Virus record (IMG/VR): IMGVR_UViG_3300045988_135203
Location: 1-49,698 of that record
Origin: a virus
DNA length: 49,698 bases
Strand: one strand, 5' to 3'
The stretch's first letter is position 1. Every line of letters starts with the position of its first letter. Under the pieces are notes generated by a model. The model was given only the letters and a program-made list of their open reading frames with translations. It did no database searches and had not been told where the DNA came from. A program made the position numbers and the translations under genes. Positions 1 to 42,311 of the stretch are shown here, in pieces.

Positions 1-33
1 TATTTTTCCTCTCTTTCTTAACTTTGTAAAATT

Positions 34-62
34 ATTATAACATTTTAAAAATAAAAAATCAA
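34..62 (-). promoter_or_regulatory. Class A promoter (TTGATT-N17-TATAAT) reading out of the window start
   Basis: Minus strand reads CTTTATTGATTTTTTATTTTTAAAATGTTATAATAATT. Confidence 0.55.
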
Positions 63-185
63 TAAAGTAATTATAACTCGGCGGAAAATATGTCCGTATC
101 CCATATATCAAGTTTATGTTCCATTTTACCTATAACCTATAACCTAAATTTACCTTTCACGCTATAACTACTTTATTGAATTGCG

Positions 186-258
186 TGCGCCAGGCGGGAC
201 TCGAACCCGCGGTATCTTGATTAAAAGTCAAGTGCATTAGCCGCTGTGCTACTGGCGC
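186..258 (-). tRNA. tRNA-Lys (anticodon UUU)
   Basis: Minus-strand cloverleaf: acceptor GCGCCAG/CUGGCGC, T-arm GCGGGTTCGAGTCCCGC, anticodon loop CUUUUAA. Confidence 0.8.
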
Positions 259-329
259 AAATTGCGGATGACGAAACCGCAAGAACCATATGTTGTCATC
301 ATTTGGTATAGCTTATGTTTTAAGCTAAG

Positions 330-402
330 GGTGACTGGAGGGAATTGAACCCCCATATTCTCATCCACAGTGAGAAGTCTTAGCCATTAGACCACAGCCA
401 CC
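330..402 (-). tRNA. tRNA-His (anticodon GUG) with genomically encoded G-1
   Basis: Acceptor GUGGCUG/CAGUCAC, extra 5' G opposite discriminator C (bacterial-type His), D-stem GUCU/AGAC, anticodon loop CUGUGGA, T-loop GGGGGTTCAATTCCCTC. Confidence 0.8.
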
Positions 403-609
403 GTAATAGATTTTGAGGAGTTGCACCTCACTTACTCTCGTAAGAAATAAGAACAATCTAATTTATTGTTTAAAATCTATAGCAGTTCAGTTTCTGCTCT
501 ATATATTCCGTATTGCTTTCCTTCCTTTTATTAATAGTAGTCTAACGAAAAACAGCGTGAATATACTTTTATCATACTCTAACCGGTATTGAATATGAAT
601 ACTGTTAAA

Positions 610-681
610 CGAGCCAACGGGGAATCGAACCCCGACCTCTGGAGAGACAGTCCAGCACACTAGCCATTATGCTACAAGCCC
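610..681 (-). tRNA. tRNA-Asp (anticodon GUC)
   Basis: Anticodon arm CTGGA-CTGTCTC-TCCAG, T-arm CGGGGTTCGATTCCCCG. The acceptor stem has one U-U mismatch and several G-U pairs. Confidence 0.7.
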
Positions 682-792
682 TTAACAAGACAGGTTTAAT
701 TTCGCACTTAAAATCCTCAATTTTACGCTGTATTAGAATTTAAAATTTTGCAGTTCCTGTCTTTAATTTATATATTTATTATATAATATTTT

Positions 793-1098
793 TTAAATAT
801 TATCAATTAAATCTTTTCGTCCTTCCGCAATGTATTCTTGCTCTTGATTTTCAAGTTCATTGATTTTAAGCAAATCAGAATGTTTCCAATTTCTTTTTGC
901 ATAATATCTACTTTTGCGGTTTTTACTTTTTATAGAACACATAGGACATGAGCAATGAATTTTTCCTTTAGAATAACATCCATCATGGTTATAATAATCC
1001 CAACCATATTCCTTTTGACATATTCTTTTCTTTCTGCGGATATGCTTTGCTCGCTGTTTACGATAATAAGCTCTATCTCTATTAGGCAAATACATCAC
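793..1098 (-). CDS. Small basic Cys/His-rich protein (putative zinc-binding)
   Basis: 101-aa ORF with CxC...CxxC cluster and a Lys/Arg-rich composition. Confidence 0.5.
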   Translation of the reverse strand: MMYLPNRDRAYYRKQRAKHIRRKKRICQKEYGWDYYNHDGCYSKGKIHCSCPMCSIKSKNRKSRYYAKRNWKHSDLLKINELENQEQEYIAEGRKDLIDNI

Positions 1099-1203
1099 TC
1101 CTATTCTGTTTATAATTGAGGGGCCTGCTTACCCCCTCATGCAGCAGTTAGTCCCTGCTTGCCGAAGCCAGTTATTTAAGGGAACTGTTAGATTGCACCC
1201 TGA

Positions 1204-1285
1204 TGGGGGAGGTAGGACTCGAACCTACGATGTTTCTTTGTCACGGTTTTACAGACCGCTACCCTCGCCACTAGGTTACTCCCCC
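1204..1285 (-). tRNA. tRNA-Tyr (anticodon GUA), type II with long variable arm
   Basis: Acceptor GGGGGAG/CUCCCCC, anticodon arm GCGGT-CTGTAAA-ACCGT, long variable arm, T-arm GTAGGTTCGAGTCCTAC. Confidence 0.75.
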
Positions 1286-1594
1286 ATAAACATATTAAGT
1301 TGGACAGCTATCCTTTAGAAGACGATGCTTCTGGAGCCTTAATAACACCCCAAGTAGTTTACCATCTCTACAAACTACCAAAGATTAGAACAATTTTCTC
1401 GTTTTGTTCATTAACGTCAGATTTTTCAGCTACGAGGTATCTGAAACATACCTTTCATTAAATTCATCCCAAGTGAAGATTTATGCCTTCAACTTAAAGA
1501 TATAGACTGTGTACTTTAGTCTGCCATTCACTTCACTCTCTGAATGGTCAACCCGTAATCGAGGCTTCGGGCGCTACCCGTGCATGTCGATTAA

Positions 1595-1665
1595 CACGCC
1601 CTCAAGGAATCGAACCCTGATTAACCGGGTTGGAGCCGGCTGTAATACCATTATACCAAAGGCGC
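1595..1665 (-). tRNA. tRNA-Trp (anticodon CCA)
   Basis: Anticodon arm GCCGG-CTCCAAC-CCGGT, T-arm CAGGGTTCGATTCCTTG, D-loop TATAATGGTAT. Confidence 0.7.
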
Positions 1666-1900
1666 AAACATGATAGACACCACACTCTCTATCACTCTCA
1701 TACTTAGCAATGAGTTTTCTGCAACGTGGAAGCTATACTCACTTTTTGTCAAGCTAAAGAAGTACAAGTAAAAAGCTACATTTACCTACATTCAGGTGTA
1801 GTTCCCTCTTCAACTACAAAGCCAAGTCATATAAAATGTATAGACTAAACATTCTATATCTAATAAATTTAAAGACGTCCTCAATATATTAGATATATAA

Positions 1901-1971
1901 TTGCGGAGACGGGATTTGAACCCGTGTCTCTAGGTTATGAGCCTAGCAAGGAGCCACTCCTCTACTCCGCA
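1901..1971 (-). tRNA. tRNA-Met (anticodon CAU; elongator Met or Ile2-lysidine type cannot be distinguished)
   Basis: Acceptor UGCGGAG/CUCCGCA, anticodon arm CTAGG-CTCATAA-CCTAG, T-arm CACGGGTTCAAATCCCGTC. Confidence 0.7.
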
Positions 1972-2065
1972 CTATTTTCAAGACACCTTTTGTCAACCGA
2001 AATTTTATTTTGAAGGTCTATTATATTGCTGAAAAGTGTCTTTTTTATTTATTTTGTATATATAT

Positions 2066-2094
2066 ATTATATATTATTTTTTATAAAAAATCAA
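2066..2094 (-). promoter_or_regulatory. Class A promoter upstream of the tRNA cluster
   Basis: Conserved module AAATTGATTTTTTATAAAAAATAATATATAATATATAC. Confidence 0.55.
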
Positions 2095-2242
2095 TTTAAA
2101 ATTTTTAACCAAGACATTTGTAAAGGTTTTGTTTTTACGGTTACTAAACTCTTTACTCTAAACCTACCGTCAATCATCAACCCAAATGATAATCTTTTTC
2201 TTGTTAGAAAATATTTGCTGTTTAAATGTCTTTTATATACTT

Positions 2243-2271
2243 ATTATATATTATTTTTTATAAAAAATCAA
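2243..2271 (-). promoter_or_regulatory. Class A promoter (tandem with 2066-2094)
   Basis: TTGATT-N17-TATAAT with conserved AT-rich spacer. Confidence 0.55.
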
Positions 2272-2273
2272 TG

Positions 2274-2621
2274 TTAAGAAAATGACCAGCCATTTTTCTT
2301 AATAATTCTCATCATATTATCCCTACCAACAGGATTCATAGAATGAATATGAAATGTAGCATCAATTTGCCATCCATCTACATGCTGCTTTTCTTCAAGC
2401 CATTCAAGAAACTTAATATAATCTCCCCCAAACATCCGCATTTCACCCGCATCATGGTCAAGACTTACATCTCCAAGATATAAACATCTTTTTCCAGAGT
2501 AAGAAAGCTCTGTCTCCGCTGTACAAGCAATAATCGCCGCATATACACTTCTAAGCCATGTATAATCAGAAGGTGCGGGTCTCACATCATCAATCCACAG
2601 ATTTGTCTTCATACTCTCCAT
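2274..2621 (-). CDS. Hypothetical protein
   Basis: 115-aa ORF. A class A promoter lies downstream of its stop and the gene is tightly packed with 2590-2865. Confidence 0.55.
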   Translation of the reverse strand: MESMKTNLWIDDVRPAPSDYTWLRSVYAAIIACTAETELSYSGKRCLYLGDVSLDHDAGEMRMFGGDYIKFLEWLEEKQHVDGWQIDATFHIHSMNPVGRDNMMRIIKKNGWSFS

Positions 2622-2865
2622 CCTCTTTCATAACTTCAATTATACCCTGATGTATAAGATAACGTTCCCATTTTTCTGGATGCTCATTACTTCCTACTAA
2701 AGTAGTAAGCATTTCTGGGGTGTATAATCCTAAATCTCCAGGAGGATTAATACTAAATATATTTGCCGCTTTCTTTACTGCAGCTCTGAGCATTCTTACT
2801 TTTTTCTCTAAGTGAAGAATTTGTGTATACAAAACTTCTTCTCTCGTCTTGGTTAAATCACTCAT
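2590..2865 (-). CDS. Hypothetical protein
   Basis: 91-aa ORF directly preceded by a class A promoter at 2898-2926. Confidence 0.6.
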   Translation of the reverse strand: MSDLTKTREEVLYTQILHLEKKVRMLRAAVKKAANIFSINPPGDLGLYTPEMLTTLVGSNEHPEKWERYLIHQGIIEVMKEDGEYEDKSVD

Positions 2866-2897
2866 TTTTATTTACCCTCTCTTAACTTTCTATAAAT

Positions 2898-2926
2898 ATT
2901 ATATTATAATTTTTATAAAAAATCAA
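2898..2926 (-). promoter_or_regulatory. Class A promoter for 2590-2865
   Basis: TTGATT-N17-TATAAT. Confidence 0.55.
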
Positions 2927-2939
2927 TTAAGAATAAAAG

Positions 2940-3488
2940 CTACTTTTCTTTCCATTGATGGCGTCTTTGGGATTTCCAGTTTCGCTCTCTAACACGATAC
3001 CAATCATCCCACCAACCATCAGGATAATCATTTCTACTACCACGGTTAAATTCCTTAAATTCAGGATTATCATACATTGCCGCAACCTGTCTAATTTTTC
3101 GTGGGCGTGTATGTGGACCACCTTTGTGTTTATGAATTCCTTCTACTGGTTCTCTGCGGAACTCACCACGATAAGTTTTGTTTTTCTTATACCTTTTCCA
3201 CCTCTGCTCAGAAGTTTCTAGTGGAAGATTTTTATACTTCTCTACCCAAAACAAATGTGCAGATTTGTAATAAATGTGCGGGTCAATCTGACGACCATAA
3301 CCATCATAATACTGGTCATTCATGCGGTCATTAACCAGAAAACCCCAAACATCTTTACGAAAACCTCTTGCTAAGTATCCAATAAATTCTCTTTCATTTT
3401 TAGCAATGCGCTGAATAGTTAAGTGCATATAGAATTTATTAAAACTATAACAATAAATTTCTTCTTTAGGCATTTCAATATTGTACAT
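2940..3488 (-). CDS. Hypothetical basic Trp/Tyr-rich protein
   Basis: 182-aa ORF with strong coding composition. Nested antisense ORFs were discarded. Confidence 0.6.
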   Translation of the reverse strand: MYNIEMPKEEIYCYSFNKFYMHLTIQRIAKNEREFIGYLARGFRKDVWGFLVNDRMNDQYYDGYGRQIDPHIYYKSAHLFWVEKYKNLPLETSEQRWKRYKKNKTYRGEFRREPVEGIHKHKGGPHTRPRKIRQVAAMYDNPEFKEFNRGSRNDYPDGWWDDWYRVRERNWKSQRRHQWKEK

Positions 3489-3541
3489 AGTAATCTCCTT
3501 TTTAAATTAAATTATTGGATAACTACCATATATCAAACTCC

Positions 3542-3745
3542 TTATGGACGAAGTATGCCTTCATCTGTCACTTCATATACATCCAAAATCTTCGTATAAT
3601 AACCTTGGAAATTTGGATATTTTTCTTTTACAAACTGAACTGCTTTATCCGCATCTGTAGTAAGTACAAAATTACACATAGCATACGTTTTCAGCATTTC
3701 ATCATCAAGGTCAAAAATAACTTTAAAAACTTTCATATTTATCAA
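3542..3745 (-). CDS. Hypothetical small protein
   Basis: 67-aa ORF with GAGG-type RBS context. Confidence 0.45.
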   Translation of the reverse strand: MINMKVFKVIFDLDDEMLKTYAMCNFVLTTDADKAVQFVKEKYPNFQGYYTKILDVYEVTDEGILRP

Positions 3746-3752
3746 CCTCCAA

Positions 3753-3874
3753 TGCCCAGAGAAGGACTTGAACCTTCACTCTAATAATAGAAACAGATTT
3801 ACGTCGCTAAATTGCAGTATAAGTATTTTACAAAACTTTTTAGCTTCTGCCGCGTCTACTTCCGCCATCTGGGC
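3753..3874 (-). tRNA. tRNA-like gene with ~45-nt insertion in the anticodon region (intron-containing, type II or pseudo-tRNA)
   Basis: Perfect acceptor GCCCAGA/TCTGGGC and T-arm GAAGGTTCAAGTCCTTC with a 3-bp D-stem. The anticodon stem GCAGA/TCTGT is separated by an AT-rich insert, and a canonical cloverleaf is only possible if this is spliced or ignored. Confidence 0.35.
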
Positions 3875-4134
3875 TTAATGATTATTCGATTGCCAATCAG
3901 GTTATCACCCTAGAAGTTTATGGACCTCCTCTTGGTGTATAAAGTCATACTCGCGGGCATTTTTAATTTCCTCTTATCTTTTTGTCCTTTATACGCTTCC
4001 AAAACCAAGCCAGGATTTACTTGCTTTACAGAAAACATTACTTTTCCAACCCTTGCAACAAAGTCACTAACGCTCTTTTAAACACTCGAATAAGCTTCAC
4101 CTATTATATTTATAGCTAGCATATCACTATAAAA

Positions 4135-4211
4135 TCCGGATTCTGGGATTCGAACCCAGGACAAACACCGCTTATAAGGCGGCCGCTCTAACCTGACTGA
4201 GCTAAACCCGG
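4135..4211 (-). tRNA. tRNA-Ile-like (anticodon UAU), 7-nt variable loop
   Basis: Typical TAGCTCAGTCAGGTTAGAGC D-arm, anticodon arm GCCGC-CTTATAA-GCGGT, T-arm CTGGGTTCGAATCCCAG. The acceptor starts with C. Confidence 0.6.
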
Positions 4212-4261
4212 TAATTCCCCAACCGACACTAACCAATGGTCTTATGTGGGGTAGTTGTATA

Positions 4262-4338
4262 TTTTTGCGGATTTCGCCGCAAAGGGGGTGAATCGCAGGG
4301 CGCCGCGGTACGAATCTCCGCACGTATTGACTTGGTTA
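4262..4338 (-). ncRNA. Truncated tRNA-Tyr-like element (pseudo-tRNA or small structured RNA)
   Basis: Shares its 5' end GGGGGAGTAACC(A/T)AG with the tRNA-Tyr at 1204-1285 and closes with CACCCCC. It is only ~62 nt of GC-rich sequence and lacks a canonical T-arm. Confidence 0.3.
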
Positions 4339-4406
4339 CTCCCCCGTCCTGCCTCTGGAGTCGGATTTATTTTAAAACGTTCTCATTCTCATAACGTTTG
4401 GTGTTG

Positions 4407-4811
4407 TTAATTCTCTTTAGCTGACTCAGAATCTTCATTTGAATCAGTAATTTCCTTAACACTTTCCACAATATAATTAATAATATCTTCACTTGTTTTA
4501 CCAACAGCAGAAATATTATCTGGCGTCACAACCTGAGCTGCCATCATCTTGTAACAAGTAGTTTCTGAAGGAACCGCACAATATAAAACTCCTGCGGCGA
4601 AGATAGTAATAATACTTCTTTTAAGATAACCATACCATCTTGCCCTTTCTTCTTCACTCTCAAAATCACCTTCAGTTTCTACAATAACGAGTATAAGAGC
4701 GAGAACACCAGCTAAAATTACTCCACCAATAATTAAAACCATCGCAAGACCTCCTACTTTGTCAGCTAAACTGACAAAGTAGAACCAAATTGGACTAATA
4801 ATAGGCTTCAT
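4407..4811 (-). CDS. Membrane protein (2 predicted TM helices)
   Basis: 134-aa ORF with two hydrophobic stretches. Its start ATG abuts the TAA of the shifted ORF upstream (TAAATG). Confidence 0.6.
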   Translation of the reverse strand: MKPIISPIWFYFVSLADKVGGLAMVLIIGGVILAGVLALILVIVETEGDFESEEERARWYGYLKRSIITIFAAGVLYCAVPSETTCYKMMAAQVVTPDNISAVGKTSEDIINYIVESVKEITDSNEDSESAKEN

Positions 4812-6827: not shown

Positions 6828-7121
6828 TTACAGATTTAACCGCGCCATAAGGTCTTCCAGATTCTTCTTCTCCTGGTCTGTAAACTCTACTGACTGCGCT
6901 GACGTTGTAGTAGGAAACGCAGAATCAGAATCCGCAGACACTGCACCTGTCTCAATCTGAATTTTTGGGCAAGTTAAAGTAATGGCAATCTGTACACGAT
7001 CTCCGCCATCGTTAGCCCATACATAAATTTTTTTCTCATGCTCACCAATAAAATTATTTCCAAAAGACTCTCTAAGCTTTTCTGTTACTTCCTGTTTTGC
7101 TACTGTTCCTCTTGCTGCCAT
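6828..7121 (-). CDS. Hypothetical protein
   Basis: 97-aa ORF whose stop overlaps the start of 7121-8410. Confidence 0.55.
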   Translation of the reverse strand: MAARGTVAKQEVTEKLRESFGNNFIGEHEKKIYVWANDGGDRVQIAITLTCPKIQIETGAVSADSDSAFPTTTSAQSVEFTDQEKKNLEDLMARLNL

Positions 7122-8410
7122 TATTTATTCTCCTCTTCTATTTTTAAAATTTTATAATCTTTAAATTTTCTTCTTATTGCGGGTAAAAAATCTTCATAGC
7201 ATTCCCCACAAACGAATGAGCCATTATAATCAAGTTGATTTCCACAGATTACACAAGATACTCTTCCACCAATGCGGAATTTAGGTACGATTCTACCAGA
7301 TTCATCAAAAACACTATTTACTGCAGTTCGATAATGAGAATTCCCCCAATACCAATGTGAAATTTCTTTTACTTTATAAGCATATTGTGGAATATAGCAA
7401 CTAGACCTTAATAAATCATTAAAGTCAAGACTACCTGGAGCATCAATAATAATGTCATTTAAAGGCACAGCTTTACTATTGATTACCATATATTTATCAT
7501 ACAATTCTTCGTCGAAAGAAGCTAAAAAATTCTCCCCATCCATTTTTAAACCAATCCTTCCAGAAATGTATTGATTGGTGAAATCAGTATATTTGCAATT
7601 TAAAGAAGGTTCAATTAACTCTTTTTTAGCTAAATTAAGTCCAACATTAGAAGTAAAAGGATATTGTCTGCCTGCAAACATAATATCCCAAGTATCAGAT
7701 AAATGAATCCAAACTCGCCACTTCTTAGAATTCCATGGAACTTCAGTAGGAAAATCTGGTAAAATATAATCTTTTTTATCCGCCCGCAGATAGCACATAA
7801 TAGTATGCTTATCTACCATATAAGATAGATTACCCGCACGAAAATCACCATCTAAAGCATGACAAGAATGCCAGCTATGACAATTCTCACTGGCTGATAA
7901 ATAGTCTAATGGATGTACTGAAAGACATAATGTTCCTGTAATTTTATCTTCCTGAATGAGCATACTTGCGGCGTTCTGTAGATTTTCAAGCTTTTTAGAA
8001 TCTTTCTCAAAAAATTTAAAGGCTTTAATAATTTTCATGCCTTTTGGAATTTTTTCTCCATCATATTCAAAGTCTTCAACGACTTTGTTTTCATAAAAAC
8101 CATCTTTCTGTATATCAATGAATCTGGCAAGGTCTGAATTGTCATGGTTACAATCAACAGAAGTTAAAAAATCTTTTACTCTTCGTATTTTTTCTTCATC
8201 TGAAAGTTCAAAAGTAACTTTTTTAGGTAATTCAATGATAAATTTACCCCCAAAAGCTTCAATAAAATCTCTTTTTGCATTGAGCCATTCTTCAAAAAGG
8301 CTGTCAGTATTTACAAACCTCTCTCCTGGAACTTTAGGAATTTCCTGCGAATAATGAATTACAAGCTCAAATTGCTCCTGGATTTTCTTAATTTCATCAT
8401 TGAATACCAT
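7121..8410 (-). CDS. Large paralog 1 of a duplicated family (HPLDY...WNSKKWR core, C-terminal CxxC zinc ribbon)
   Basis: 429-aa ORF sharing S[VI]HPLDY-x7-N-x3-W-SC-x4-DG-x-[FY]R-G and WNSKKWR with 10956-12710. The C-terminus reads CVICGN...CGEC. Confidence 0.7.
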   Translation of the reverse strand: MVFNDEIKKIQEQFELVIHYSQEIPKVPGERFVNTDSLFEEWLNAKRDFIEAFGGKFIIELPKKVTFELSDEEKIRRVKDFLTSVDCNHDNSDLARFIDIQKDGFYENKVVEDFEYDGEKIPKGMKIIKAFKFFEKDSKKLENLQNAASMLIQEDKITGTLCLSVHPLDYLSASENCHSWHSCHALDGDFRAGNLSYMVDKHTIMCYLRADKKDYILPDFPTEVPWNSKKWRVWIHLSDTWDIMFAGRQYPFTSNVGLNLAKKELIEPSLNCKYTDFTNQYISGRIGLKMDGENFLASFDEELYDKYMVINSKAVPLNDIIIDAPGSLDFNDLLRSSCYIPQYAYKVKEISHWYWGNSHYRTAVNSVFDESGRIVPKFRIGGRVSCVICGNQLDYNGSFVCGECYEDFLPAIRRKFKDYKILKIEEENK

Positions 8411-10955: not shown

Positions 10956-12710
10956 TTAAACATTTAATTCAAAAATTTTGCAAATCCTACCATCAGAATA
11001 CAAATCCATAATTACTTTTGAATCTGATTCATCAATTTTTTCTTTCTCTGCTGTCCAAAAAGTATTAGAATTTCTAATAATTGCAGCGATAGCTTTATCC
11101 GTAAGCTGATCTGTTGTAATATAGTCTAAATCATGCCAGAAAAATGATTCATACTTCTGATGTTTAATCTTACCATTAAAGAAACTACACTCTCCATCAC
11201 ATAAATCATCATAGTCATCATTATAAATTAATAAAGGACGTTTATAGAACTTATCTTCAGTTCCAGGTACTTTTACAAATACTTTAGATAAATTAGAAAT
11301 AAGGTGTAAATTTCCAGTTAAAATATCTTCATCTGTACCATATTCATAGCATGATTCACAAAGAATTTCACCATCTACTTCATAGAAATCTTCATCATAA
11401 ATTCTATCATCACATCTGTCACATCTGCGATATCCAGAACATTCAAGACAAATTGTATCTCCTTCAGAATCCCAAGTAAATTTTTCGCCAGCTGTTCCAC
11501 AAATCATACATTCTGATTTACCAGAATAACAAAATTTAATTTCTGTTTTAGGTCTACTTTCAATATATCTAGGAAAATAACCTAAATGTCCTGAGCAAAA
11601 ATCATTATACATCAAAGTTGTATATGGTTTAACAGAAATCTGATGTTCAACTACATACTCGCTACCTGCTGGATTATCATATGTATCAAAAGCATGGTAT
11701 TTTTCAGACCAATAATCCTCGTGTTCTGTACCCTCAACTTCTCTAATCATCTGATTAACCCAATACTCAGACCGCACTTTGTTATCAAGCTCTTTTAACC
11801 AATTTAAAACTTCTCCTGTAATATATTTATTGCGATATGGATAACTTTTAATTTCACAAATAATGTCATTATTTACAATAAAAAGTTCTCTCCACTTTTT
11901 ACTATTCCAATATTCAATTTTTCCATCAGAAAGCGGAATTGCCATTGGGTTATTTGCTGATTCAAGATAAGCAACCAATACCATTGGAGAGTTCATCATT
12001 TCAACAGTACCCTGGCGATAACATCCATCTTCTTTCCAACTCATACAAGAAGACCAATCACACTCATTATCACTCATGGTCATATAATCAAGAGGATGAA
12101 TGGAAAGAGTAAGTCTACCTTTCAGCTTCTTCTGGTTTAAAGCCTGAGAATGTTTAATTCTGAAATCCTCAAAATAAGGTAAATCATAAGCTGCCGCAAT
12201 TTTACCAATCATTTTGGTAATTTTACATCCAGTAGAAACTCTAATCGGCTTTTCTGGATTCTTAGGATTTGGAACGGCGAAAGAAGCATCACTCCACACA
12301 TTACTAACAAGATTACCAGTATCAAGCATGTAAGCTAACTGGTTACGTACTTTACTTAATCCAGATTCATATTTATAAGCAGAATCAGAATAAACAAAAC
12401 AATCAAACCAAGCATCATAAAAAGCATAAGAATGTCTACCTACTTCTTCAGAGGCACGAGAATCAAAGCAATTTTTGGATACTTTCGCATAGAGTTCATC
12501 AAAGTCGGCTTCAAACTCAATGTCTTTGGAAATCTGAAACTGATGACCAAGCATGGTATACAGATAGCTTTTATTTGCATTCCACTCTCTAAGAATATAA
12601 GAAAGGTCTGCCTTCAAAGGCATATACTGTCCATTGTTTGCAGCATTATCTTCGATATAACTCTTAATCATTGCTTTCTCTTTGTCAGATAATTTATCAA
12701 ATAACATCAT
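10956..12710 (-). CDS. Large paralog 2 of the duplicated family (HPLDY...WNSKKWR core, multiple C-terminal zinc ribbons)
   Basis: 584-aa ORF carrying the same core motifs as 7121-8410 plus CMICG...CLEC...CDRC...CESC. Confidence 0.7.
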   Translation of the reverse strand: MMLFDKLSDKEKAMIKSYIEDNAANNGQYMPLKADLSYILREWNANKSYLYTMLGHQFQISKDIEFEADFDELYAKVSKNCFDSRASEEVGRHSYAFYDAWFDCFVYSDSAYKYESGLSKVRNQLAYMLDTGNLVSNVWSDASFAVPNPKNPEKPIRVSTGCKITKMIGKIAAAYDLPYFEDFRIKHSQALNQKKLKGRLTLSIHPLDYMTMSDNECDWSSCMSWKEDGCYRQGTVEMMNSPMVLVAYLESANNPMAIPLSDGKIEYWNSKKWRELFIVNNDIICEIKSYPYRNKYITGEVLNWLKELDNKVRSEYWVNQMIREVEGTEHEDYWSEKYHAFDTYDNPAGSEYVVEHQISVKPYTTLMYNDFCSGHLGYFPRYIESRPKTEIKFCYSGKSECMICGTAGEKFTWDSEGDTICLECSGYRRCDRCDDRIYDEDFYEVDGEILCESCYEYGTDEDILTGNLHLISNLSKVFVKVPGTEDKFYKRPLLIYNDDYDDLCDGECSFFNGKIKHQKYESFFWHDLDYITTDQLTDKAIAAIIRNSNTFWTAEKEKIDESDSKVIMDLYSDGRICKIFELNV

Positions 12711-20764: not shown

Positions 20765-20793
20765 ATAATATAATATTTTTTATAAAAAATCAA
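20765..20793 (-). promoter_or_regulatory. Class A promoter for 20280-20678
   Basis: TTGATT-N17-TATTAT. Confidence 0.5.
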
Positions 20794-20825
20794 TGGGGTA
20801 AGATGAATGGCAATAAAGAGAATGG

Positions 20826-25477: not shown

Positions 25478-25592
25478 TTCGGCCTAGCACAGTCGTGCGC
25501 CGGCCGCTCAAAAGTCAAGATGTAATTTTACACAAAAATAATTTTCGTCAAATTGCACAAAAAAGAAAGAGTCTGAATATTCAGACTCTTTC
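25478..25592 (+). ncRNA. Candidate ~115-nt antisense/small RNA of cassette 2
   Basis: Bounded by a consensus promoter and an intrinsic terminator, with a conserved 5' GC hairpin. Confidence 0.4.
25565..25592 (+). terminator. Intrinsic terminator of the cassette 2 RNA
   Basis: AAAGAGTCTGAATATTCAGACTCTTT. Confidence 0.5.
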
Positions 25593-25639
25593 ACAAGAAA
25601 GGAGGAAAACAAAATGATTAGTCAAAACCTTTCGGTTTA

Positions 25640-25690
25640 GAAGAGGGGTGAGAGGGAATCGAACCCTCTCGAACAACCGTTCCCCCTGTG
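25640..25690 (-). ncRNA. tRNA T-arm/acceptor-like minihelix immediately after stop of 25693-26061
   Basis: GAGAGGGTTCGATTCCCTCTC (7-bp stem with a canonical GGTTCGATTCC T-loop) flanked by GGGGG...CCCC. There are no D or anticodon arms. Confidence 0.3.
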
Positions 25691-25692
25691 GC

Positions 25693-26061
25693 TTACTCTA
25701 CAAAGAAGTAAGCCTTTCTTTTCTCAACCTCTCTCTGGATTTTTAAATCTTTAACAAGAGCGGTCAGCAGAGAAGTGATTCTCTGGTTTGTGAGTTCCGC
25801 AAGCTCTGGAACCTCTTTAGCAAGCTCTGTTGCTGTGAATCTCTTTTCGGATTCTGTAAGGAAGTTTACAATGATTTCTTTCAGCTTTTCATTTTCTTCC
25901 TGAGTAGCTGTTTTCTTTGTAGAAGATTTCTTCTTTTCAAAACCCTCTTTGATTTTTTCAAGCTTCTCAACCAGTTCAACAGAACCGTTGTTTTCTTTTA
26001 CAACCTTGATTGCCATTTCCATTGCTACTACGTTTGTAAGTTTGTTTGTCATACTTATCAC
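25693..26061 (-). CDS. Winged-helix-like protein, paralog family 1
   Basis: 122 aa carrying ELTNQRITSLLTALVKDLKIQREVEKRKAYF, with a class B promoter at 26091-26119. Confidence 0.65.
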   Translation of the reverse strand: MISMTNKLTNVVAMEMAIKVVKENNGSVELVEKLEKIKEGFEKKKSSTKKTATQEENEKLKEIIVNFLTESEKRFTATELAKEVPELAELTNQRITSLLTALVKDLKIQREVEKRKAYFFVE

Positions 26062-37674: not shown

Positions 37675-38400
37675 TCAGATTACGGATTTTAATTTATTAA
37701 GAATATATTCATCATTTATTTTATCATAATCATAATAAGGTATTCTTATTAATAAAATATTATTTTCTTTACAATATATATCTTTTCTTTCATCTCTTAT
37801 TTGTTGAATTTTAAATTTATTTTCACCACCAAAATATTCAACTGGTCTATAATGTTGCTCACCATCATACTCAATTAATGCTATAATATTATTTTCTTTC
37901 ATAATTATAAAGTCAAATATCATAACATTATTATTTTTATCTTTTATTCTATATTGTTCTTTAAAAGATAAATTCTTGTCCGTTAAAATATTTTTAATTT
38001 TTAATTCTCCACTACTTCTTTTAGCACATCCACAAGAAATAGTTCGAGCATGACTTTGTCCCTTAAGGTGTTCAAGTCTTACTTCAAAAGGTTTTGAACC
38101 GCAATCACATTGTACTTTTACATAAGTTTTATTATTTTTACATGGAGCATTTCCAATTATTGTTAATAAACCATATTTATCTCCAATTTCATATTTACGT
38201 CTATCTTTATCTTTACAATTATTACAACTTTTAGGATTTTTGTCTAAATCGCCTTTTCTTACACTAGAAATTTTTCCACAATTAAGACATTCACAAATCC
38301 AAAAAGTTTCATGTGATTTTGATTTAGGATTTTTATCTCTTTCAATTACTTTCCAACAGCCATGTATTTGTCCTGAATAATCTTTTAATTTTCTTCCCAT
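37675..38400 (-). CDS. Free-standing PD-(D/E)XK (Vsr/DUF559-like) homing-endonuclease-like protein with N-terminal zinc fingers
   Basis: The C-terminal FDFIIMKENNIIALIEYDGEQHY...IRIPY matches RxDF...IEvDGxxH nuclease cores and is homologous to 45384-45740. The N-terminus is multi-Cys. It sits in an extremely AT-rich, gene-poor segment. Confidence 0.6.
   Translation of the reverse strand: MGRKLKDYSGQIHGCWKVIERDKNPKSKSHETFWICECLNCGKISSVRKGDLDKNPKSCNNCKDKDRRKYEIGDKYGLLTIIGNAPCKNNKTYVKVQCDCGSKPFEVRLEHLKGQSHARTISCGCAKRSSGELKIKNILTDKNLSFKEQYRIKDKNNNVMIFDFIIMKENNIIALIEYDGEQHYRPVEYFGGENKFKIQQIRDERKDIYCKENNILLIRIPYYDYDKINDEYILNKLKSVI
37675..38400 (-). mobile_element. Putative free-standing homing endonuclease locus
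   Basis: The surrounding region 37540-38550 is gene-poor, differs in composition from neighbouring early genes and lacks the class B promoter pattern. Confidence 0.4.
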
Positions 38401-39105: not shown

Positions 39106-39401
39106 CTTATAATTACCGTTCCATGCTTTCCTTCTTTTCTCAACCTCTCCAAAACTGGATGGCAGGAATTTTTTTCATTCATAAATACAATAGCAAAATC
39201 AAGTTCTTTAATATAATCATTAAATGCGCCAAAAAAATATTTTTTGCCGGAACCATTATTTTCTGCCCATTTATCTCCCAAAGAATTGGGAGAACACACT
39301 ATATTAAATAAATATGTCCCCTTTATTTCAATAAGCTCATTTAATCTTTTGTCCAAAAGGTCATAATCATCAAGTGTGCCTCCAATTATTCCTACATTCA
39401 T
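39102..39401 (-). CDS. SLOG/DUF2493-like Rossmann-fold protein (YpsA/DprA-like)
   Basis: VGIIGGT ... LGDKWAENNG ... ELDFAIVFMNE ... GTVII pattern typical of DUF2493 SLOG domains. Confidence 0.5.
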   Translation of the reverse strand: MNVGIIGGTLDDYDLLDKRLNELIEIKGTYLFNIVCSPNSLGDKWAENNGSGKKYFFGAFNDYIKELDFAIVFMNEKNSCHPVLERLRKEGKHGTVIIR

Positions 39402-40267
39402 GCGATTGGCTCAATAAAAATTAACTTATCAATATAATCTCTATCCGCACCTTTGAAAATAGGAATTTTATAATCTATTTTCCATTTGCGGCGAACAATT
39501 ATTCTTTCACCAATTTGTTCTCCAAAATAAACATTTGGCTCTTTAATTGTTTCTTTAATTGTTTCTTTTTCTTCTATTTTGATACATGCGGTACCGCGTT
39601 TACATGGAATTGTAAAGTCATTCCAATTAATTCCACATTGAGTCATTAGCATATCTTGAATATCATTACAAGTTTTATCTTTAAGTTTGGCATGTGAAAA
39701 ACAAGCTTGTCCCACCATTTGAATACTATTCCGCGTTGCATCCAATTGCCGCCAATAAATAAGATTAGTTACTTCTTCTTTTGGAATATTAAAACATCTT
39801 GCGTCAAACATTGCTCCTTTTTCTGCGGCATTTACATATCTTTCAATAAGCCTTTTATTTCCCTCTATAAGAGGGTCATGAGTCGAATTATATTTAATTA
39901 TATTCTCAGAAAAATATTTATTAAAAGCCATTGTTGCCATAGAAGCTGATACGGAAGCCATTTTCTGAACCTCATAATTAAACCAAGCCTCTGAGGTTAA
40001 CTTTTGGTAATCAGTTAAAATTAAAGTAATTTCATCTGATTGAGTATATCCAAAAATACAACCCTGAATATTTTCACAAAGATACTTCATTGTCCTTTGC
40101 ATCGTATCCATTAATACAGGATCAAATGGTTTCTGAAAGCCTCGTGTAAAAGTATGAAAAGCTTTTCCATCAAGCCTAATAGCTACTGGCATGCGGCGAA
40201 GTAATTGTGTTTTTGCGGGATTTTCATAAAAATCTTTCATTCTTGCGGCAAGTTCACTATTATCCAT
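39398..40267 (-). CDS. Thg1-like protein (tRNA-His guanylyltransferase family 3'-5' nucleotidyltransferase)
   Basis: VAIRLDGKAFHTFT, YTQSDEITLIL and IYWRQLDATRNSI match the Thg1/TLP core motifs (RLDG-x-FH-x-F, YGQSDE, WRQ-D). Confidence 0.75.
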   Translation of the reverse strand: MDNSELAARMKDFYENPAKTQLLRRMPVAIRLDGKAFHTFTRGFQKPFDPVLMDTMQRTMKYLCENIQGCIFGYTQSDEITLILTDYQKLTSEAWFNYEVQKMASVSASMATMAFNKYFSENIIKYNSTHDPLIEGNKRLIERYVNAAEKGAMFDARCFNIPKEEVTNLIYWRQLDATRNSIQMVGQACFSHAKLKDKTCNDIQDMLMTQCGINWNDFTIPCKRGTACIKIEEKETIKETIKEPNVYFGEQIGERIIVRRKWKIDYKIPIFKGADRDYIDKLIFIEPIA

Positions 40268-41252: not shown

Positions 41253-42311
41253 ATGATTAAATTAGACTATACTATACAAACTCCAGAAGAAAGAAACGAA
41301 TTAGTGAAAAAAATTTTGGAAGAAACTCCTGATCCTAGTGAGAGATATTTAGAAATTTTGGCTGACTACCTCGTTCTTTGTATGGAGAAACAAGAGAAGA
41401 AGCAGAAACAAATTTTAACAGAAAATCGAATGACAACTGTTAATAAGAGAGAAACTTCTTATGAAGGTCTTGTTTCCCAATTAGAAAATGGCGAAGATGG
41501 TATCTATAACCTAATAAATGAAAGTAAAACAACAATATTTCAACCAAAAGTGACAATAACAAAGAAAGATTTAGAAGAAATACCTTATTTGAGACAATTA
41601 CGTGATGCTATCAATAGTTGGGAAATAAAACTTAAAAAAGCGCAGGGGCGCGATGCGTATATAATTAAAAAAGCATTGATCGAAATGCGTAAAGACCAAT
41701 ATGTAATAAAAAATGCTTACCGCAAACCTATTATCTTTAATAAAATTAGTCGTTCTAATTTTGCATCTAGATTGGTTGAAGATTTTACATTAGATGAAAA
41801 TAATTATATTGTTCCTAGTGGGGTTTCTTTATGTGACCCCGCGGTTTGTTCATTAATTCTTTGTAATTATTCACAGCTTAAAGAAGAAAGTTGGGGAAAA
41901 TTTGAAGGTGATTTATGGTACCTTATGGAATCATTTGATAAAGTATCTACAGCCGCTTTAGAAGAGTATCCACTATATGAAGAAATAGTAAAATGTAAAA
42001 TAGATGGATTGCAGAATATAGAAATACAAAAAATACTAAAACAAAAATACGATACTACTCATAGCTTAGAATATATTTCTAGCTTATGGAGAAAAAAGAT
42101 TCCAAATCTTATTGCCTCGAAAGCAGAAGATGTAGAATTAAGTTGGTATTTTTTAAATACCGAAAAAGGCAAATATAAAAGATGTAGTCGATGCGGGAAA
42201 ATTAAACTTGCTCATAATAAATATTTTAGTAAAAATAAAACTAGCAAAGATGGCTGGTATTCTATTTGTAAAGAATGTAGAAATAAAAAAAATAAGGACA
42301 AAAAGAAATAA
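41253..42311 (+). CDS. Hypothetical protein with C-terminal zinc ribbon (first gene of the plus-strand late module)
   Basis: 352 aa with CSRCGK...CKEC, a GGAGG RBS, and a plus promoter TTGACT-N17-TATAAT at 41201-41229. Confidence 0.6.
   Translation: MIKLDYTIQTPEERNELVKKILEETPDPSERYLEILADYLVLCMEKQEKKQKQILTENRMTTVNKRETSYEGLVSQLENGEDGIYNLINESKTTIFQPKVTITKKDLEEIPYLRQLRDAINSWEIKLKKAQGRDAYIIKKALIEMRKDQYVIKNAYRKPIIFNKISRSNFASRLVEDFTLDENNYIVPSGVSLCDPAVCSLILCNYSQLKEESWGKFEGDLWYLMESFDKVSTAALEEYPLYEEIVKCKIDGLQNIEIQKILKQKYDTTHSLEYISSLWRKKIPNLIASKAEDVELSWYFLNTEKGKYKRCSRCGKIKLAHNKYFSKNKTSKDGWYSICKECRNKKNKDKKK

Follow-up and report, generated by a model that had tools for sequence, protein, structure and literature searches.

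A gut phage tRNA island with an insert-bearing tRNA-like gene of an apparently old, anticodon-variable family

The IMG/VR virus record IMGVR_UViG_3300045988_135203, analysed here over its positions 1 to 49,698 (49,698 nucleotides, referred to as the window), carries near its start a tRNA island in which seven canonical tRNA genes are accompanied by a tRNA-shaped gene with an insert in its anticodon region, here called element 1. The best-supported reading of this gene, as judged by comparison with related phages, is that it belongs to an old, always-interrupted and anticodon-variable family of type II (Leu/Tyr-shaped) phage tRNAs, and we tentatively take the copy of this phage to act as a tRNA mimic rather than as a normal decoder. 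An initial annotation of the window had brought element 1, two further aberrant elements (elements 2 and 3) and a Thg1-like enzyme together into one tRNA repair or counter-defence theme, but the three elements prove to be separate things, namely a member of an insert-bearing tRNA family, a piece of a structured leader RNA and a hairpin in a 3' untranslated region (3' UTR).

To our knowledge, all tRNA introns of bacteria are regarded as self-splicing ribozymes of group I. For phage tRNAs, short inserts that are not ribozymes have been noted once, in the Lak megaphages in 2019, and were left unexplained (PMC6784885). Such inserts are now seen in phages of Bacillota as well, where one insert-bearing family appears old and always interrupted, switches its anticodon between close relatives and adjoins a predicted RNA-end-processing gene (cREC), and where some other inserts end exactly at the cuts expected from tRNA processing. 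The locus thereby provides testable specifics (RNAs, junctions and candidate proteins) on how bacteria and phages remove or use inserts, and it bears on the manipulation of the tRNA pool by phages in conflict with tRNA-targeting defence systems.

The gene and its insert are located as follows.

3753-3874, minus strand: element 1, type II tRNA-shaped gene (ARAGORN with introns allowed, covariation)
3804-3845, minus strand: insert of element 1, about 42 nt, between tRNA positions 31 and 32 (alignment to orthologues)

Element 1 has a 7-bp acceptor stem, a Leu-like D stem of 3 bp, a T arm with the loop UUCAAGU, a variable-arm hairpin (UCUA-UUAU-UAGA) and a discriminator A, its D loop lacks GG, and overall it most closely resembles the phage tRNA-Leu genes of the relatives. 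The insert lies between the two strands of the anticodon stem, GCAGA (3846-3850) and TCTGT (3793-3797), and leaves a residual loop, CGTAAA (3798-3803), that has no U33; where a normal tRNA has an uninterrupted anticodon loop of 7 nt, including U33 and a purine at 37, the stem here encloses a loop of 48 nt. ARAGORN finds the gene only when introns are permitted, with a 43-nt insert in that parse, and the covariation described below supports the cloverleaf, so the description of this locus in the initial annotation as a tRNA-like gene with an insert in the anticodon region is confirmed; of the two kinds of search that it proposed, the intron-model one thus calls the gene, whereas the Rfam tRNA model RF00005 gives no match to it even at E<=10. 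The insert is, as stated there, too short for a group I intron, and the corresponding model, RF00028, has no match at E<=10 in window positions 1-4500. The identity proposed by ARAGORN, a tRNA-Phe(AAA) with an intron at 38/39, was rejected, since the stem that it requires (AGAAG/TTTCT) is broken in the L004 variant and its loop length shifts among variants (8, 9 or 11 nt, consensus fold). The 3' end of the gene lies 4 nt ahead of the ribosome-binding site of the next ORF.

Members of the family were found in the window clade, in the L012 clade and in L077, L081, L083, L088 and L098 (L numbers stand for related contigs), and every one of them has the insert. When seven diverged members are aligned, the cloverleaf, including the stem that crosses the insert, is paired in 100% of cells, as compared to 35-47% in slid controls, and compensatory changes are present in 10 of the 20 cloverleaf pairs, two of these being in the anticodon stem. 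Pairs 29:89 and 31:87, which span the insert, covary, showing that a 5-bp anticodon stem closes across it; the acceptor, D, anticodon and T helices are all maintained by covariation in these seven members, as in a tRNA. The insert itself measures about 40 nt and is always placed at 31/32; no structure is conserved in it across the family, and its sequence is conserved in patches only. Since an allele lacking it was not seen for any type II member, the insert is considered an integral part of the RNA.

In L077, L083 and L081 the orthologue of element 1, also of type II and with a homologous insert of about 40 nt across which the distal strand pairs with the 3' strand of the anticodon stem, lies directly upstream of a homologue of ORF182, an uncharacterised protein described below; in the L012 clade a further family member is found at another place in the tRNA region. 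After the insert, the orthologues have a canonical CU-NNN-AA loop in which C32, U33, A37 and A38 are conserved, and the anticodon varies from locus to locus.

L077: GUA
L083, L088 and L098: UAA
L012 clade: UUA
L081: GGG

L077 and L098 differ at 5 of 126 positions, two of which are in the anticodon. Fixed flanks around a changing anticodon would fit either a re-targeted decoder or a bait that imitates different host tRNAs.

Two further tRNA-like sequences were observed in the neighbourhood of these orthologues. L077 (4672-4792) and L083 (2661-2777) have a second insert-bearing tRNA-like gene, of class I, between tRNA-Ile(UAU) and the type II gene; its insert of about 50 nt has AACTGCAA in common with the insert of element 1 in the window, and its loop is not clearly canonical. 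In L081, an acceptor/T-arm-like fragment (AGCCGAG TTCGAAT CTCGGGCT, at about 2740-2790) lies just upstream of the type II insert-bearing tRNA and is not called by ARAGORN.

Within the window clade, five distinct variants of element 1 were recovered from the relatives. All the substitutions in the tRNA body keep pairing (C2:G71 to U:A, a double change, A7:U to G.U and G27.U to A:U), and substitutions and indels are concentrated in the 5' part of the insert (AGCUAAAAAG, AUCAGCAAAAAG, AGCUAAAAG). Element 1 shows one variable column in 122, against seven in the 26 nt of its upstream flank. The CGUAAA loop without U33 is present in all five variants, in a clade whose proteins have diverged to 77-90% identity, and aligns as GCGA-C-GUAAA-UCUGU, which equals the L077 loop minus U33.

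Downstream of element 1 lie two protein genes that recur with the family.

2940-3488, minus strand: ORF182, uncharacterised conserved phage protein (182 aa), downstream of the element 1 family and upstream of cREC
2274-2621, minus strand: cREC_REC, predicted receiver-like domain processing 2',3'-cyclic phosphates (PF20274, E=5.4e-16)
3523-3537, minus strand: 15-nt motif TTTGAYATATGGTAG between the element 1 gene and the ORF182 start, shared by the window, L077, L083 and L081

A protein search with ORF182 yielded 61 homologue clusters, five loci of which were fetched to give, together with the window, six contexts. In five of the six, a cREC gene follows the ORF182 homologue at a distance of one to three genes, and in four a member of the element 1 family directly precedes that homologue. 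For the L012 clade no ORF182 homologue was found, the viral-contig search returning window-clade contigs only and 3.8 kb of L012 being inspected. ORF182 has a confident N-terminal domain without structural match and a conserved, basic and Trp-rich C-terminal region. The cREC match reaches 59.5 bits (Pfam cut-off 27) and the protein is 31% identical to the cREC of L081; a role of the domain in opening 2',3'-cyclic phosphates has been predicted, and it has been linked to RNA ligases (PMC7824862). Motif TTTGAYATATGGTAG is situated some 20-35 nt upstream of every ORF182 homologue examined (about 4960-4975 in L077 and 2960-2975 in L083 and L081), and in L077, L083 and L081 a tiny ORF ends with it (..R-K/R-F-D-I-W-stop). 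A leader peptide or a regulatory site is possible. ORF91 was considered as a further member of this module and rejected, as its only homologue is a small ORF of L080; the small ORFs of L077 and L081 are of another family. The window also encodes one NUDIX and two NT5C-like HAD proteins, and no RNA ligase, polynucleotide kinase or RtcB was detected with Pfam among the about 60 window ORFs scanned. A 101-aa ORF inside the tRNA cluster (793-1098, minus strand) and the C-terminus of ORF182 are both rich in Arg, Lys, Trp and Tyr and have an (E/K)RNWK motif in common, which suggests a common nucleic-acid-binding module.

The initial annotation had also identified a Thg1-like enzyme, and this assignment was corroborated.

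39398-40267, minus strand: Thg1-like protein (TLP) of bacterial type (PF04446, E=1.5e-30; phrog_4717, E=4e-85)

Its PF04446 score is 106 bits (cut-off 29.2), and the best solved structure is the TLP of Bacillus thuringiensis (4KGK, E=5e-55), which matches over the full length. The RLDG and QSDE motifs, holding the catalytic RxDG/SDE carboxylates, are intact when aligned to 4KGK, so the inactivating substitutions that the initial annotation had named as evidence against its proposal were not found. TLPs repair 5'-truncated tRNAs in vitro, and by its motifs and structural match the window protein is, as predicted, an intact bacterial-type TLP and thereby a putative 5'-end repair enzyme. It shares the catalytic motifs with its Bacillus thuringiensis counterpart, with the difference that it is phage-encoded, in a phage whose tRNA-His already encodes G-1. 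TLP genes occur in 159 phage records from many hosts, hence the co-occurrence of TLP and tRNA cluster, which are 35 kb apart, is not specific, and a link between the TLP and the aberrant elements is not supported.

Element 1 is not the only interrupted tRNA gene in this group of phages. ARAGORN with introns allowed reports, in related contigs, tRNA-Asn genes with inserts of 54-65 nt, a tRNA-Asp with an insert of 77 nt and a tRNA-Pro with one of 57 nt. The Asp insert, found in the orthologues of L002, L006 and L009, is tRNA-shaped and lies between G34 and U35, and the sequence of the Pro insert does not differ between clades (100% identity). For both Asn and Asp there are also alleles that lack the insert but have the same exons (the tRNA-Asp of the window being one of them); these give the exact junctions, which are G34/U35 or, for Asn, 35/36. 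The exons around the Asn and Asp inserts are perfect and show compensatory T-stem changes. Both kinds of insert fold as miniature tRNAs made up of an acceptor stem, a T arm and a small hairpin that resembles a D arm and has the loop AAGUA. The acceptor stem starts with the very first nucleotide of the insert, and the discriminator is located at the 3' junction or 1 nt before it. When its threshold is relaxed, ARAGORN reports essentially the full length of the Asp insert, and of one Asn insert, as a tRNA. From these ends we infer that RNase P and RNase Z would excise the tRNA-shaped Asn and Asp inserts, after which a ligase would have to seal the loop. Without removal of their inserts, the Asn, Asp and Pro genes would serve no purpose, hence an insert-removal activity probably exists in these phage-host systems. 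A spread of the inserts as multi-copy mobile elements was rejected, since each occurs only in its own tRNA and no free copies were seen in 100 loci and the window. The presence of the 65-nt tRNA-Asn insert differs between close relatives (L029 at 15191 versus L005 at 11076 and L007 at 11077), and the Asn insert of L015 resembles at its 5' end the L004 type and not the L012 type, which points to recombination between Asn insert variants.

As concerns known intervening sequences, the closest likeness is to the 'enigmatic' tRNA introns of the Lak megaphages (Devoto et al. 2019, PMC6784885), for which we found no later explanation in the literature. They are 79-114 nt long and interrupt phage tRNAs in the anticodon loop, have no Rfam match, show presence/absence alleles and recur as identical inserts in diverged genomes; they contain a nested module of a 7-bp acceptor stem and a T arm whose 3' end abuts exon 2, the order in Table S6 being 7-bp stem, T arm, C-A and then exon 2 (PMC6784885). 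The Asn and Asp inserts of the relatives of the window have this same architecture. The insert of element 1 does not: it has neither T loop nor acceptor-like stem, it is placed at 31/32 and not at 37/38 or inside the anticodon, and it is never absent. In addition, the Lak hosts are Prevotella, while Bacillota are concerned here, and the Lak paper reports neither anticodon variation nor synteny with cREC.

Group I introns are known from the anticodon loops of bacterial tRNAs, i.e. of tRNA-Leu(UAA) and, at 35/36, of tRNA-Asn and tRNA-Asp in Patescibacteria (PMC13011429). The phage inserts share with them the insertion in the anticodon loop, the tRNA species (Leu(UAA), Asn and Asp) and the presence/absence polymorphism, but with 39-77 nt they are far below ribozyme size (core P3-P9 at least about 150-200 nt). 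Their junctions do not follow the group I rule either, in which the 5' exon ends in U and the intron in G, as the Asp insert follows G34 and ends in AU and the Asn insert ends in A or U. Archaeal bulge-helix-bulge (BHB) introns at non-canonical positions are similar in being short, variable in sequence, defined by position and spread over several anticodon-arm sites. No bulge-helix-bulge (two 3-nt bulges and a 4-bp helix) was seen by inspection of the L077 and L006 junctions, no dedicated search being run. BHB splicing belongs to archaea and eukaryotes with a splicing endonuclease, whereas no such enzyme was found here and the relatives are bacterial phages. An archaeal virus with ordinary BHB introns was accordingly rejected, because the portal and the TLP have their relatives in phages of Bacillota and other bacteria and the window, whose ORFs include a portal, a terminase-like and a sigma-factor-like protein, has a sigma-factor gene. 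The nearest named relatives of the portal are phage phAss-1 (38.6%) and Herelle-like phages of Enterococcus and Bacillus. The phAss-1 group is monophyletic and made up of gut phages with probably clostridial hosts, and some of its members recode TAG (PMC10607447). Portal relatives and this group together point to a bacterial host, and with it ordinary archaeal BHB splicing is ruled out; by these comparisons the window derives from an AT-rich gut phage of Bacillota related to phAss-1 and to the Herelle-like phages of Enterococcus and Bacillus. Its first 12 kb have no megablast match among 50,697 phage records.

For the copy of element 1 in this phage we favour a tRNA mimic over splicing, while holding the mimic itself as a tentative choice that falls somewhat short of an even chance. 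RNase P and RNase Z would cut element 1 out like a tRNA, which would also free the downstream mRNA, and the insert would hold the anticodon nucleotides in a large open loop, so that the RNA would act as a mimic and not as a decoder; the loss of U33 from the loop of this phage makes ordinary decoding even less likely. Such a mimic may bait host factors that recognise tRNAs, for example anticodon nucleases, or compete for them, or it may instead be a substrate of the neighbouring ORF182-cREC genes for RNA-end processing. Several considerations weigh against it. The case is one of sequence comparison, in which the structure and the insert boundaries were derived from the same sequences that later served for the pair counts and in which many of the relatives are close, so that independent evolutionary events are few. 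The CU-NNN-AA flanks are equally expected of a decoding tRNA and would be compatible with insert removal, and the Asn, Asp and Pro genes are maintained in relatives, where some insert-removal activity probably exists. We also know of no nuclease target or binding partner of the element 1 RNA, and the UUA (ochre) anticodon of the L012 clade is not obviously explained by a bait. Splicing, which we regard as possible though doubtful, would make the family intron-containing decoding tRNAs, with proteins excising the insert of about 40 nt and the two halves being joined again in the anticodon loop to yield Leu, Tyr or suppressor tRNAs with phage-dependent maturation; candidate factors are the products of cREC and ORF182, an endonuclease that leaves 2',3'-cyclic phosphate, and a ligase of host or phage. 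Canonical CU-NNN-AA loops do abut the 3' stem strand in L077, L083, L081 and L012, a predicted cyclic-phosphate processor with ligase links (cREC, PMC7824862) follows ORF182 in 5/6 contexts, with the tRNA family present in 4/6, and the perfect exons, presence/absence alleles and compensatory T-stem changes at the Asn and Asp inserts of relatives imply removal there. However, neither an endonuclease nor a ligase was identified in the window, ORF182 is without structural match, an insert-free type II allele was never seen, and the L012 clade has the insert-bearing gene but, in the contigs searched and the 3.8 kb inspected, no ORF182 homologue. Moreover, precise excision would leave the window copy with C33 or G33 or with a 6-nt loop, and a Leu-like body with a GGG, GUA or UUA anticodon would mistranslate. 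That element 1 is instead a decaying pseudogene, kept merely as a processing site for RNase P and RNase Z or by chance, is in our view very unlikely: the lost U33, the variable 5' part of the loop with its indels, the D loop without GG and the lack of an Rfam tRNA match would suit decay, but pairing is kept by all body substitutions, with one double compensatory change, the gene varies in 1 of 122 columns against 7 in the 26-nt flank, and the loop without U33 is fixed in a clade with proteins at 77-90% identity.

Two broader readings go beyond the mimic. Gut phages of Bacillota and Bacteroidota might have in common tRNA intervening sequences of a third type, distinct from group I and from BHB introns, which would take two forms; as a whole we deem this improbable. 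In the first form, tRNA-shaped inserts would be excised by tRNA-end-processing enzymes, as their ends coincide with the cleavage sites of RNase P and RNase Z, and an RNA ligase would close the nick left in the anticodon loop. In the second, a fixed insert of about 40 nt would sit at 31/32 of a type II tRNA with a rapidly re-targeted anticodon (GUA, UAA, UUA, GGG), and would be handled by the linked ORF182-cREC genes, the outcome being tRNAs under phage control or proof against nucleases, or else tRNA baits. The reading of the initial annotation, that cluster, aberrant elements and Thg1-like enzyme form a tRNA repair or replacement system against host anticodon nucleases, is plausible in view of the intact TLP and of the cREC gene at 2274-2621; the latter lies inside the cluster, had been overlooked there and strengthens the RNA-repair part of the theme. 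Known nuclease targets are tRNA-Lys(UUU) and the GUN-anticodon set of His, Asp and Tyr (PrrC, colicin E5), and the tRNA set of the phage includes Lys-UUU and the GUN-anticodon His, Asp and Tyr. The Septu defence also targets tRNA-Tyr, which the phage set includes, and is overcome by phage tRNA-Tyr (PMC13096335). The Thg1 part found no specific support, however, given TLPs in 159 phage records of many hosts and a TLP gene 35 kb away from the cluster; neither ligase nor kinase was found among the about 60 window ORFs scanned with Pfam, no host nuclease is known, and codon supply alone explains the canonical tRNAs, so that we consider counter-defence of this kind rather unlikely.

The seven canonical tRNA genes predicted in the initial annotation were recovered as the same set by ARAGORN and by RF00005, all on the minus strand, with 52-70 bits (gathering score 29) and a cloverleaf with a 7-nt anticodon loop in ARAGORN.

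186-258, minus strand: tRNA-Lys(UUU) (ARAGORN; Rfam, 70.4 bits)
330-401, or 330-402 with G-1, minus strand: tRNA-His(GUG) (ARAGORN, Rfam, sequence)
610-681, minus strand: tRNA-Asp(GUC), insert-free (ARAGORN, Rfam)
1204-1285, minus strand: tRNA-Tyr(GUA), type II (ARAGORN, Rfam)
1595-1665, minus strand: tRNA-Trp(CCA) (ARAGORN, Rfam)
1901-1971, minus strand: tRNA with anticodon CAU (ARAGORN, Rfam)
4135-4211, minus strand: tRNA-Ile(UAU) (ARAGORN, Rfam)

The G-1 of tRNA-His is, as the initial annotation had it, encoded in the gene, at position 402, and faces C73 at 330 in the sequence and in the Rfam alignment, therefore no addition of G-1 is needed by this tRNA. The tRNA with anticodon CAU is not initiator-like, and its orthologue in one close relative, represented by L002 (1865-1936), L006 (7518-7589) and L009 (9879-9950), reads UAU, which suggests an Ile2-type, lysidine-dependent tRNA able to switch to a TilS-independent form rather than tRNA-Met. 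Codon usage is strongly AT-biased, with AAA making up 83% of Lys and AUA 20% of Ile codons, and the tRNA set agrees with it, as had been noted; the bias fits the usual codon-supply role of canonical tRNAs. A promoter-like repeat, ATTGATTTTTTATAAAAA (TTGATT-N17-TATAAT), is present in 10 copies (0.18 expected), nine of them on the minus strand and several directly upstream of island tRNAs or ORFs. Examples of its sites are given here.

2078-2095, 2255-2272, 2910-2927 and 20777-20794: copies of ATTGATTTTTTATAAAAA

The seven ordinary tRNAs would hence be transcribed on the minus strand from these repeated phage promoters, would supply codons in heavy phage use (AAA, AUA) and would be separated by conserved structured spacer RNAs. 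An amber or ochre suppressor serving a recoded genome was rejected, as the 49.7-kb window shows no sign of TAG, TGA or TAA recoding. When TAG or TGA is recoded, the share covered by ORFs of 100 aa or more grows from 71% to no more than 77% and the longest ORFs hardly change, and TAG terminates 12 window ORFs; on these figures the window gives no indication of the in-frame TAG or TGA in conserved late genes that would mark phAss-1-type recoding.

Element 2 was described in the initial annotation as a GC-rich element of 62 nt at 4262-4338 that shares its 5' end with tRNA-Tyr. The element exists, and 12 nt, GGGGGAGTAACC, are identical between it and the 5' end of tRNA-Tyr, but its bounds were wrong: the 62 nt are the first domain of a longer leader RNA.

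4217-4345, minus strand: structured leader RNA including element 2, 129 nt (alignment A4, 19 distinct sequences)
4341-4345 with 4284-4288, minus strand: P1, GGGGG/CCCCC
4318-4322 with 4304-4308, minus strand: P2, UGCGG/CCGCG, loop AGAUUCGUA
4277-4279 with 4268-4270, minus strand: P3, small hairpin
4247-4251 with 4217-4221, minus strand: P4, stem-loop with P5
4239-4241 with 4225-4227, minus strand: P5, stem-loop with P4
4332-4338 with 4230-4236, minus strand: 7-bp long-range helix UAACCAA/UUGGUUA, covarying from A:U to G:C

Over the 19 sequences, 99.8% of cells are paired, as against 37-55% when slid, with five compensatory pairs distributed over four helices. The inner hairpins of the minimum-free-energy fold (RNAfold, RNAalifold) are contradicted by the covariation and were replaced by P2 and the long-range helix. 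Between ORF 4407-4811 and tRNA-Ile, the 195 nt are 86-87% identical in a clade in which the neighbouring protein reaches only 73-74% identity, and cleavage of tRNA-Ile(UAU) by RNase P would release 4217-4345 as a leader RNA. The leader RNA has no Rfam match, and the same is true of two further structured spacers of the island.

1287-1593, minus strand: Trp-Tyr spacer, multi-hairpin structured RNA (RNAalifold, 12 distinct sequences)
3875-4134, minus strand: spacer from tRNA-Ile to element 1, structured RNA (10 compensatory pairs, 18 sequences)

The Trp-Tyr spacer shows 22 compensatory pairs and 2 broken cells in 816, and is 74% identical to that of a clade in which the neighbouring protein is 73% identical. 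With such spacers the island is therefore a tRNA array interleaved with structured non-tRNA RNAs. The tRNA cluster of phage T4 similarly encodes two stable non-tRNA RNAs, which are structured, tRNA-sized and released by tRNA-processing enzymes. The likeness is that of a phage tRNA operon also encoding structured RNAs; there is no sequence relationship, and the spacer RNAs are larger here, one having a long-range loop-loop helix.

Element 3, which the initial annotation had reported as a T-arm plus acceptor minihelix, was located far from the island, and a T-loop hairpin is indeed present.

25644-25687, minus strand: element 3, 44 nt, small hairpin plus 7-bp T-arm-like hairpin (sequence)
25559-25596, minus strand: intrinsic terminator downstream of element 3 (sequence)

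The larger hairpin, GAGAGGG TTCGATT CCCTCTC, has a canonical T-loop and is clamped by runs of G and C. It lies in a 3' UTR, between the stop codon of ORF 25693-26061 and the strong terminator, and is kept only in close relatives, without compensatory change, paralogous loci having a plain GC hairpin at this place. An att site or captured 3' end of a host tRNA was rejected: no integrase was found, and the 24-mer of the element recurs only in a tRNA fragment from an unrelated viral contig and a Steroidobacteraceae metagenome-assembled genome (one of each) and was not found in gut bacterial tRNAs. We regard element 3 as a tRNA-like 3' UTR hairpin of uncertain meaning.

A few other genes of the window deserve mention. 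A free-standing HNH/homing-endonuclease-like gene (37675-38400, minus strand) lies 1 kb from the TLP gene, and the sigma-factor-like protein (41253-42311, plus strand) has an HNH/endonuclease VII-like zinc-finger region at its C-terminus. Two large ORFs, at 7121-8410 and 10956-12710, both on the minus strand, match phrog_18912 (function unassigned) and are likely paralogues.

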